Sequence record: NC_041936.1
Reading direction: 5' to 3' (one strand)
Length of the DNA: 64,000 nucleotides
Source: Escherichia phage ECD7
Shown in pieces: positions 23,978-26,790 of the stretch. The notes under the pieces are model-generated. The model was not told where the DNA came from, did not search any database, and was given only the letters and a program-made list of their open reading frames with translations. Numbering within the stretch: the first letter of the stretch is position 1; each line of letters begins with the position of its first letter. Position numbers and translations under genes: made by a program.

Positions 23978-26790
23978 GCGTGATTGAAGGGATTAACGCA
24001 ATGGCGACGGATGAACACCCGCTACATTTAGCGCATCCGTCTACACTAGAAACTAAAATTGATTCAAACGGCATTGAATGGATTTTATCAAAGCATGATG
24101 ATAAATGGTATCCTAAAAAGTTTTCTGACTATCTGAAATTAAACAGACCGCAGAAAATAAGGATGCAAAGCACTGATCCAACAAATTATAAGTTCTTTAA
24201 AGATAGTGACAATATTCGCACGCGGTATATGCGGTTAAAGAACTTGCGAAGGGCGAATATTAAAACTCAGTATACCCCTGAAATGATCGCAGAGTGGAAA
24301 CGATGCCGTAAAGATATTGTGTATTTTGCCGAAACCTATTGCGCAATTACACACATCGACTACGGTACAATCAAAGTACAATTGCGTGATTATCAGAAAG
24401 ATATGCTTAAGATCATGCATGAAAACCGCATGAGCGCACATAAACTCAGTCGTCAGCTAGGTAAAGCACTTGATGTTAATACGCCTATTCCTACCAGCGA
24501 TGGGTTTAAACGTATGGGGGATATTAAAGAAGGTGATCAGATCTATGCGCCTAATGGTCGTTTAGTTAATGTTGTATATGCAACGGAATACCAGTATGAT
24601 CGCAAGTGCTACGAAGTTGTTTTAGATACTGGCGCTAAAGTTGTTGCTGATGCCGATCATATCTGGACTGTATACGAAAAAGTTGGCAACAAACATGTCA
24701 AGCGTGATGTTACAACTCAGGAAATGGTCGATAAGGGTATTACTACCAAAGGTCAATCCAGATTTAAAATCGCTAAGACTAAACCGATTAAGGGAGAAAC
24801 TAAAGTTCTTCCTGTTGATCCGTATACTTTAGGTTATTGGTTAGGTGATGGTCACACTGATGCAGCACGAATCACCCACCATAAGGACGATAGCGGCATT
24901 CTGACGCATTTAAACGAACAAGGCTATCATACATATACTTTTGCAGATAAACGCAATAGCAACGTTCTCACAACGTCTGCGCATGGGTTATGGGAAGGAC
25001 TTAAAACCGCTGGCGTTGCTGGCAATAAGCATATCCCTATGGAATACCAATTCGCTGATATTGATCAGCGAACTGCATTACTGCAAGGTATCATGGATTC
25101 TGACGGATGCATCAATAAAAATGGTTATGCTGAAATTACATTAAAACTGAAACCGCTTATCGATGACATTTATTCGCTGTTGTGCGGATTGGGCTTTAAG
25201 CCGAAAATGAAAGAAAAAGTGGTAAAAGGTACTGTATATTACAGAATTTCATTTAATGCATATGCAGATAAGGGTGTGTGTCCGGTTCGAATTAAGCGTA
25301 AGAAAGCAAATCTTATTAATTCTTGCGAAGATACAAGAACAGATTTTCTTTTTATTCGTGAAATTAATCCGGTTGAATCTCGTCCGGTAAAATGTATTCA
25401 GGTTGACAGCGAGGATAAACTATATCTGTGCGGTCGTGAATTTATTCCGACTCATAATACTACCGCTGTAGCAATATTCCTTGCTCACTACGTTTGCTTT
25501 AATAAAGACAAAGCTGTAGGTATACTGGCACACAAAGGATCTATGTCAGTTGAAGTTCTAGAACGTACAAAACAGGCGATAGAATTGTTACCTGATTTTC
25601 TACAACCTGGTATCGTTGAATGGAACAAGAAATCTATTGTGTTAGAAAACGGGTCTAGTATCGGCGCTTATGCATCATCACCAGATGCGGTGCGCGGAAA
25701 CTCCTTTAGTTTCATATACATAGACGAAGCAGCCTTTATTAGTGCGTGGCAGGACGCATGGTTAGCTATTCAACCAGTTATCTCATCTGGTCGTGAATCT
25801 AAGCTGATCATGACCACGACTCCGAACGGGCTTAATCACTTTTATGATATCTGGCAATCGGCTATTGATGGTAAAAGTGGTTATGTTCCATATGAGGCGG
25901 TTTGGCATTCTGTTAAAGAACGTCTTTACAATAAAGCTGATATATTCGATGATGGTTATGAGTGGTCATCTCAGGCGATCGCCGGATCTAGTCTTGAGCA
26001 ATTCTTACAGGAACATAACGCTGAATTTTTCGGTAGTTCCGGTACTCTGATCAGGGCAACCACACTATCAAGATTATCCTTCATTGACGTTGTTAACGAT
26101 AACGGGTTTTATCAGTTTGAGAAACCGAAAGAAGGTAGAAAATATGTTGCTACACTAGATTGCTCAGAAGGTCGAGGACAGGACTATCATGCATTGCAAA
26201 TCATTGATATTACTGAATTTCCTTATAAGCAGGTTGCAGTATATCACAGCAATACTACGTCACATTTTATATTACCGGATATTGTCTTTAAATATCTCAT
26301 GATGTATAACGAATGTCCAGTTTATATCGAGCTAAATAGTACGGGTGTATCTATTGCTAAGTCTCTTGCGATGGATCTTGAATATGATAATATTATTTGC
26401 GACTCATTCATAGATCTAGGGATGAAACAATCCAAAAGATCTAAAGCAATGGGATGTTCGGCACTAAAAGACTTAATAGAAAAAGATAAGCTGATCATTA
26501 ATCATAAAGGAACTATTCAGGAGTTGCGCACATTCTCCGAGAAGGGGGTAAGCTGGGCGGCAGAAGAAGGTTTTCACGATGATTTGGTCATGAGTCTGGT
26601 AATATTTGGTTGGTTAACAACTCAAGAAAAATTCGCCGAATATGCAGGAAAAGACGAAATGCGGATCGCCTCCGAAATATTCCGAAAGGAATTAGATGAA
26701 TTGGGGGAAGAATACGCGCCCGTGGTAATATATGACGGTGCAAACGGCATCGAAGAATATAGGCCGCGTGAAGGTCTAACAATGATATAA
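23974..26790 (+). CDS. 17: terminase large subunit gp17, interrupted by an intein (607 aa extein + 331 aa intein)
   Basis: SRQLGK / [29 protein letters not shown] matches the T4 gp17 Walker A region when the insert is removed; C-terminal nuclease region conserved. Confidence 0.9.
24466..25458 (+). mobile_element. intein with LAGLIDADG homing endonuclease domain inside gp17 P-loop
   Basis: Begins [13 protein letters not shown] (block A with Ala1), block B DADHIWT, LAGLIDADG motifs LGYWLGDGH and [12 protein letters not shown], block F VKCIQV, ends IPTHN followed by Thr +1. Confidence 0.85.

Follow-up and report, generated by a model that had tools for sequence, protein, structure and literature searches.

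Class 3 inteins lack an N-terminal nucleophile, carry a co-varying triplet of Trp at position 12 of block B (B:12), Cys at position 4 of block F (F:4) and Thr at position 5 of block G (G:5), hereafter the WCT triplet, and are followed by Ser or Thr, rarely Cys, at the +1 position (PMC2807308). Tori et al. 2010 demonstrated that the block F Cys attacks first, forming a second, thioester branched intermediate (PMC2807308). In the archetype of the class, the DnaB intein of mycobacteriophage Bethlehem (MP-Be DnaB), the corresponding residues are His65, Trp67, Cys320, Thr339, His340, Asn341 and Thr+1, and the C320A and C320S variants are inactive (PMC2807308), while for the DnaBi1 intein of M. smegmatis (Msm DnaBi1) Cys118 is the initiating nucleophile by experiment and C118A abolishes splicing (PMC6195587). 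Class 3 inteins located between the Lys and Thr of phage terminase P-loops (the K/T site; here and below a slash marks an intein insertion point) have likewise been known since work of 2009–2016, among them the TerL1-a inteins of mycobacteriophages, e.g. in Cjw1 gp8, whose exteins belong to the Terminase_1 family of actinophages (PMC5050341). The survey of Kelley et al. 2016 lists inteins in Terminase_6-type proteins only at another site, f, in the C-motif (PMC5050341). Here we analyse gene 17 of Escherichia phage ECD7 (NC_041936.1), which lies within a stretch of 64,000 nucleotides referred to as the window; all features described are on the + strand of the window. This gene encodes a Terminase_6 (T4 gp17 type) protein of a coliphage, interrupted at the K/T site. 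Both the kind of element and its insertion site are thus already known, and we hold with high confidence that the interruption is a class 3 intein that contains a LAGLIDADG homing endonuclease, sits between Lys164 and Thr165 of gp17, and would splice and home in the manner set out below.

The open reading frame of the gene 17 precursor (large terminase TerL plus intein) occupies 23974..26790 and encodes 938 amino acids (106.8 kDa). It is the gp17 gene of a Krischvirus and by megablast 99.7% identical to kvi_24, the large terminase of Escherichia phage kvi, which is classified in Straboviridae, Krischvirus, species RB49. DNA alignment with the gene 17 sequences of RB49 and JSE, each 1824 bp long, leaves a single 993-bp in-frame gap at gene nucleotides 493-1485, i.e. 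window positions 24466..25458, corresponding to precursor residues 165-495. Since the end bases of the insert differ from the flanking bases, its ends are unambiguous at the nucleotide level. The gp17 proteins of RB49 and JSE are without the insert and read SRQLGK/TTAVAIF uninterrupted. With the intein removed, the spliced protein is 98.7% identical to RB49 gp17, and it aligns end to end with T4 gp17 (PDB 3EZK, E=1.4e-281), the junction being free of gaps, so that the insertion point falls between the residues equivalent to T4 Lys166 and Thr167 in the Walker A motif SRQLGKT. An earlier note on this DNA, made from the letters alone, had already placed an intein at 24466-25458 of a 938-residue gp17 and had proposed that excision of residues 165-495 would restore a contiguous Walker A motif, to be checked by alignment with T4 gp17; its coordinates prove exact to the nucleotide, and the RB49, JSE and T4 alignments agree in restoring the motif.

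The N-extein (gp17 residues 1-164; 23974..24465) runs up to SRQLGK (24448-24465), which is the first half of Walker A, and the C-extein (25459..26790, stop codon included) supplies residues 165-607 of the spliced protein, with the remainder of the ATPase domain followed by the RNaseH-like nuclease domain. The Pfam match to Terminase_6N begins only after the insert (residues 496-698, E=1e-40) and is followed by Terminase_6C (residues 727-898, E=4.6e-23). By these alignments and domain matches, the host protein is a T4-type large terminase with an N-terminal ATPase domain bearing Walker A and a C-terminal RNaseH-like nuclease domain. As is characteristic of inteins, the insert is missing from orthologues and the host sequence is contiguous once it is removed.

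Searching all PDB sequences with the 331-residue insert (37.3 kDa) using phmmer ranked class 3 DnaB inteins at the top (E=2.5e-18 to 3e-17), the best matches being DnaBi1 of M. chimaera (6RIX/6RIY) and of M. smegmatis (6BS8). Two segments align to DnaBi1, residues 1-69 and residues 297-331; on this alignment they make up the two halves, N- and C-terminal, of a Hint domain into which another domain is inserted. The middle of the insert is matched by PI-SceI and PI-PfuI. An AlphaFold2 model of the intein, built from an input alignment of 82 sequences, scored 95.3 for the predicted local distance difference test and 0.93 for the predicted template modelling score. When this model was compared with the PDB by Foldseek, the whole chain matched PI-SceI (TMq 0.74), the Tli and Pho VMA inteins and PI-PfuI, its splicing domain matched class 3 DnaB inteins (TMt about 0.8), and its endonuclease domain matched I-DmoI. 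Among the Pfam and NCBIfam models, only LAGLIDADG_3 scored above threshold and no dedicated model scored the splicing domain; the NCBIfam matches to the insert are weak and are to models of intein-containing proteins. As no dedicated model in these collections scores the splicing domain, the absence of a Hint match is uninformative, and it is the PDB sequence and fold searches that settle the identity of the insert. The sequence and the modelled fold together identify it as an intein of Hint fold plus LAGLIDADG domain in which blocks A, B, F and G are all present.

The two-domain architecture is that of PI-SceI, the Sce VMA1 intein. PI-SceI differs in being a class 1 intein, whose nucleophile is Cys1 and which has Asp at F:4 and Cys at +1; it also contains an additional region for DNA recognition and is only about 16% identical to the ECD7 intein. 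Identity to the class 3 DnaB inteins is about 35-45% over the splicing blocks, and includes an ungapped alignment to DnaBi1 that pairs HIW with HQW, Cys48 with Cys48, VKC310IQVD with VRC118VEVD, and PTHN with PTHN. Msm and M. chimaera DnaBi1 are mini-inteins without an endonuclease, whereas the ECD7 intein keeps a full LAGLIDADG domain, as does MP-Be DnaB.

Block A (24466..24504) begins with Ala1, providing no N-terminal nucleophile. The block B core DADHIWT (24649..24669) contains His65 (B:10) and Trp67 (B:12), and block F starts with VKCIQVD (25387..25407), in which Cys310 (25393-25395) occupies F:4 and is the predicted initiating nucleophile; the ungapped alignment pairs it with Cys118, the catalytic residue of 6BS8. 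Block G, IPTHN (25444..25458), contributes Thr329 (G:5), His330 and the terminal Asn331, so that the intein ends in His-Asn followed by Thr+1 (IPTHN/T). The +1 residue (25459..25461), predicted to act as the C-extein nucleophile, is at the same time the Walker A Thr equivalent to T4 Thr167. A further cysteine, Cys48 (24607..24609), aligns with Cys48 of Msm DnaBi1. The signature as a whole (Ala1, His65, Trp67, Cys310, Thr329, His330, Asn331, Thr+1) has nearly the same numbering as that of MP-Be DnaB. It shares with the class 3 DnaB inteins an Ala or Pro at position 1 in place of a nucleophile, His at B:10, the WCT triplet (PMC2807308), the final His-Asn, the conserved Cys48, insertion directly after the Walker A Lys, and a +1 Thr or Ser that is the Mg-binding residue of the P-loop; the host of those inteins is the replicative helicase, and that of the ECD7 intein a T4-type terminase.

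When 120 relatives of the intein, both metagenomic and genomic, are aligned, these positions are close to invariant. Trp at B:12 is kept in 119/119 sequences and Cys at F:4 in 121/121, Thr at G:5 and the terminal Asn each in 120/121, and Ala1 in 111/116; the +1 residue is Ser in 106 and Thr in 14 (Ser or Thr in 120/121), and Cys48 is kept in 117/119. Every sequence feature that defines class 3 is present, and the insert is, at the level of sequence, a homologue of bona fide class 3 inteins. The earlier note had called the signature class-3-like, naming Ala1, the block B Trp, Cys at F:4, Thr before the terminal His-Asn and Thr+1 as well as blocks A, B, F and G and two LAGLIDADG motifs; all are where it put them, and its wording appears too cautious given a homology (E=2.5e-18) that no chance resemblance of motifs would produce. 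One residue weighs against the assignment, since a His that Msm DnaBi1 has in the latter half of block F (EHLYL) is Lys in the ECD7 intein (DKLYL), although the equivalent H328A change in MP-Be DnaB had no effect (PMC2807308).

An intein beginning with Ala1 might in principle also splice in the manner of class 2, with Thr+1 attacking the N-terminal junction directly and Cys310 having no more than a structural or activating function. KlbA-type inteins do begin with Ala1 and splice by direct +1 attack, and when MP-Be DnaB was modelled, the distance to the scissile bond was nearly as short from Thr+1 as from the Cys of block F (PMC2807308). However, class 2 inteins are without the WCT triplet and use Cys+1 (PMC2807308), whereas the ECD7 intein has the full triplet and is homologous to Msm DnaBi1, whose splicing is abolished by C118A, and to the MP-Be family, which C320A or C320S inactivates, making direct attack by Thr+1 very improbable.

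If the intein does follow the class 3 route, gp17 would be translated as a 107-kDa precursor that presumably cannot bind ATP, since its P-loop is split by 331 residues. Cys310, positioned with the help of His65 and Trp67, would attack the Lys164-Ala1 peptide bond to give a thioester branched intermediate, cyclisation of Asn331 would set free the 37.3-kDa intein, and an O-to-N acyl shift would yield a 69.5-kDa gp17 with SRQLGKT intact. We infer this mechanism by homology. Thr+1 would thereby be both a splice nucleophile and the Walker A Thr, a dual role paralleled by the P-loop Ser of DnaB at the DnaBi1 site (PMC6195587). Packaging would then depend on splicing, as the earlier note had proposed.

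Each genome holds one copy of gene 17 (megablast), and the ten phages found to carry the intein (see below) were isolated as plaque-forming phages and are viable on E. coli. Because the only copy of an essential gene is interrupted in viable phages, we infer strongly that the intein splices in E. coli. There is next to no chance that the insert is instead a degenerate, non-splicing relic, with working terminase made in some other way such as from a second gene or by internal initiation. Nothing was found in favour of such a reading. Every catalytic residue is intact, the single gene 17 leaves no second copy, and no internal start could yield an active ATPase as the first half of Walker A lies in the N-extein; moreover the 938-codon frame is open and under purifying selection in ten independent viable isolates.

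The endonuclease domain covers about residues 101-290 of the intein (24766..25335). Pfam LAGLIDADG_3 matches precursor residues 364-422 with 28.8 bits against a cut-off of 22.5, and the two motifs, LGYWLGDGH (24829-24855) with Asp128 and one with the core LLQGIMDSDG (25078-25110) with Asp213, align as LGYWLGD128G and LLQGIMDSD213G with LGLWIGD218G and LAGLIDSDG of PI-SceI, so that both metal-binding Asp residues are present. Two such motifs, each bearing a catalytic acidic residue, within a pseudo-dimeric alpha-beta-beta-alpha-beta-beta-alpha fold characterise PI-SceI-type enzymes, and the ECD7 domain conforms to this in its motifs and in its fold matches to I-DmoI and PI-SceI. Selection and flanking sequence were compared among eight intein-bearing alleles, including that of the window, and seven intein-less alleles. 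All eight intein alleles are open, with no frameshift or stop codon. They fall into three types, namely kvi-like inteins (at least 99% identical to each other), the Makalu type and the ELT3 type, the latter two having a synonymous divergence (pS) of about 0.14 from that of the window. Overall, the ratio of nonsynonymous to synonymous substitution (dN/dS) is 0.11-0.12; for the endonuclease domain it is 0.09-0.13, and for the splicing domain equally low. Values of about 0.1 argue that the endonuclease is under selection.

Once freed, the intein would be expected to cut the intein-less gene 17 of co-infecting relatives at the empty site CAGCTAGGGAAA/ACTACCGCTGTAGC; in RB49 gene 17 the cut would fall near CTAGGGAAA/ACTACCGC. 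With the intein-bearing copy as repair template, the element would be passed on to these alleles, i.e. homing. No T4-type late promoter (TATAAATA) from which the endonuclease might be expressed separately occurs within the intein, the nearest being at 26786. Exact matches to this core number nine in the window, all on the + strand, against 5.9 expected, which is not above chance; the copy at 26786..26793, shortly before gene 18, shares bases with the stop codon of gene 17.

About 58 Krischvirus records match at 90% identity or more (megablast), and ten of these, about 17%, carry the intein and contain the full 2817-bp gene. The others, including RB49, JSE, Phi1, GEC-3S and Sf20, give a two-piece match covering 65%, corresponding to a 1824-bp gene. 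Two species are mixed in this respect: within species RB49, kvi has the intein and RB49 and Sf20 do not, and within species gec3s, Makalu_002 and Makalu_003 have it and GEC-3S does not. Such a patchy distribution within species fits mobility by homing. At 24462, 4 nt upstream of the insertion site, a silent GGG>GGT change provides a marker that is T in seven of the eight intein-bearing alleles and G in 7/7 of those without intein. Directly 3' of the intein, from +38 to +345 (25497..25804), lies a diverged mosaic patch. Its pS against RB49 is about 0.6, compared to 0.02–0.04 in the rest of the gene, where identity is about 99%. Only kvi and PTE-Eco09 have an identical patch; identity is 94% in intein-less JSE and about 81% in all other alleles, including FL15, MIZ4 and AV108, which carry the same intein. 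The patch may be what later recombination has left of a long co-conversion tract that came from an unsampled donor.

As evidence for homing, the flanking sequence is mixed. The ELT3 intein is present without the marker at -4, FL15, AV108 and FL04 have an identical intein without the diverged downstream patch, and intein-less JSE has part of the patch. Strict linkage between the intein and a flanking haplotype must be rejected, as only the -4 site is linked (in seven of eight carriers) and the downstream patch is unlinked. The presence and absence of the intein could also reflect ordinary recombination or loss. This would be so if the intein splices but its endonuclease is inactive in homing, with the distribution arising from vertical inheritance, occasional precise loss and ordinary recombination among co-infecting Krischviruses. 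Recombination is very frequent in T4-like phages. The RB49-like downstream flanks of FL15, AV108, FL04 and ELT3 and the partial patch of JSE would suit such a history, as would the low proportion of carriers when the empty site is essentially invariant in the seven intein-less alleles compared. It is harder to reconcile with both catalytic Asp residues being kept, with a dN/dS in the endonuclease domain matching that of the splicing domain, and with eight of eight alleles being free of disruptions. Inteins that are at least 99% identical in differing gene 17 backgrounds, and the linkage of the -4 marker in seven of eight, likewise speak against it. We therefore regard an inactive endonuclease as unlikely, though by no means negligible, and homing by an active one as likely.

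The source of the patch was sought by blastn of 25459..25810 against all phage records, in which nothing nearer than JSE (94%) was found outside the kvi/PTE-Eco09 group. The metagenomic contig P0001 (L020) was considered as donor and rejected, as it is about 68-71% identical to the window, RB49, JSE, FL15 and Makalu alleles alike.

The conserved Cys48 raises a further and more speculative question. In Msm DnaBi1, Cys48 is essential for splicing and is the disulfide partner of the catalytic Cys, and the disulfide is reversible and blocks splicing under oxidative stress (PMC6195587); zinc, too, reversibly inhibits DnaB splicing (PMC7360933). By analogy, the ECD7 intein may be a conditional post-translational switch on a T4-type packaging motor, in which Cys48 and Cys310 could delay terminase maturation under oxidative or metal stress, while in mixed infections the endonuclease could cut gene 17 of intein-less competitors. 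We think this decidedly doubtful; if true, cutting of competitors' gene 17 would give carriers a competitive advantage. Kelley 2018 calls Cys48 of Msm DnaBi1 non-conserved (PMC6195587), and the near invariance of this residue in the subfamily to which the ECD7 intein belongs hints at a general role or at redox sensitivity.

Relatives of the intein were found by tblastn in 852 phage records. Junctions were checked in five of these, of which four are at the P-loop K/T site: Cjw1 gp8 (ARKNGK/ALDVET...PTHN/TELL), the T4-like cyanophage B23 (a Synechococcus phage, Kyanoviridae; LPRQCGK/ALDLTT...PTHN/TTTT), Alishewanella phage Slicko01 (SGRQTGK/ALGLET...LTHN/TATL) and the E. coli jumbo phage vB_EcoM_JNE01 (Asteriusvirus; ARQMGK/ALANNT...PTHN/TTVA). 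The fifth, Omega gp11 (HSAHEFK/ALAIDT...PTHN/TAVN), has class 3 junction residues with no Gly-Lys P-loop context before the junction. The TerL1-a intein of Cjw1 has 33% full-length identity to the ECD7 intein. Synechococcus phages B3 and B23, Slicko01, JNE01 and the metagenomic sequences P0001-P0003 share the RQxGK/T site, with junctions of the form RQxGK/ALxxxT...THN/T, the class 3 signature and the LAGLIDADG domain. B3/B23, Slicko01, JNE01 and P0002-P0003 are 33–41% identical to the ECD7 intein and have other host phages, while P0001, at 69% identity the closest relative, lies inside another T4-like gp17. In the records examined, none of these (B3/B23, Slicko01, JNE01, P0001-P0003) has an intein annotation or description.

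The hosts of the metagenomic relatives comprise Terminase_6, Terminase_1 and GpA-type terminases, dCTP deaminases and PD-(D/E)XK nucleases. Among the sequences P0009-P0120, most of the closest relatives (33–37%) lie in dCTP deaminases from metagenome-assembled genomes of Actinobacteria and Chloroflexi, after a ...RLEGK/ motif, and others are inserted in PD-(D/E)XK (Cas4/RecB-like) nucleases. The deaminase and nuclease hosts imply that the same class 3 lineage occupies several unrelated sites in which ...GK precedes Ser or Thr.

Our literature search found no description of an intein in gp17 of a Krischvirus or any other T4-like coliphage, and a paper from 2024 states that none have been reported from coliphages (PMC11162368); the intein thus seems to be undescribed in the RB49-like phage group. 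None of the deposited records examined names its product an intein-containing terminase. In three of them, PQ306574.1, PP400778.1 (L004, 1501-4317) and PP358550.1 (L006, 1501-4317), the terminase is misannotated as 'replicative DNA helicase (DnaB)', evidently owing to the likeness of its intein to those of DnaB. An automated 'intein-containing' note accompanies one of these three, and the other records say terminase. The present analysis corrects the annotation of these gene 17 records.

As the mechanistic class and the insertion site are textbook knowledge, our findings do not change the understanding of inteins, and their value is practical, lying in an apparently intact class 3 intein, endonuclease included, in a T4-type terminase. 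T4 gp17 is among the most intensively studied of DNA-packaging motors. Its crystal structures are available (3CPE, 3EZK), the host phages grow on E. coli K-12, and there are dozens of intein-less relatives about 96–98% identical in gene 17. This system makes it possible to test class 3 splicing in its native context, homing and co-conversion in co-infections, and whether splicing gates packaging.

The intein is not the only mobile element in the vicinity of gene 17. The neck genes 13 and 14, at 2.1 kb upstream of gene 17, are separated by a free-standing GIY-YIG homing endonuclease gene (21290..21874), which encodes a Pfam SegE_GIY-YIG domain together with an I-TevI-type DNA-binding domain. 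Megablast found this gene in kvi, Phi1 (two records) and phiS alone, the phiS copy being annotated SegC, and this restricted occurrence marks it as a second sporadic mobile element in the late-gene block. In Escherichia phage FL20 (L012, 1..159), a homing endonuclease is annotated for the gene directly before gene 15, a position at which the other loci have the neck protein gp14; it represents one more endonuclease insertion that varies between Krischviruses in this region.

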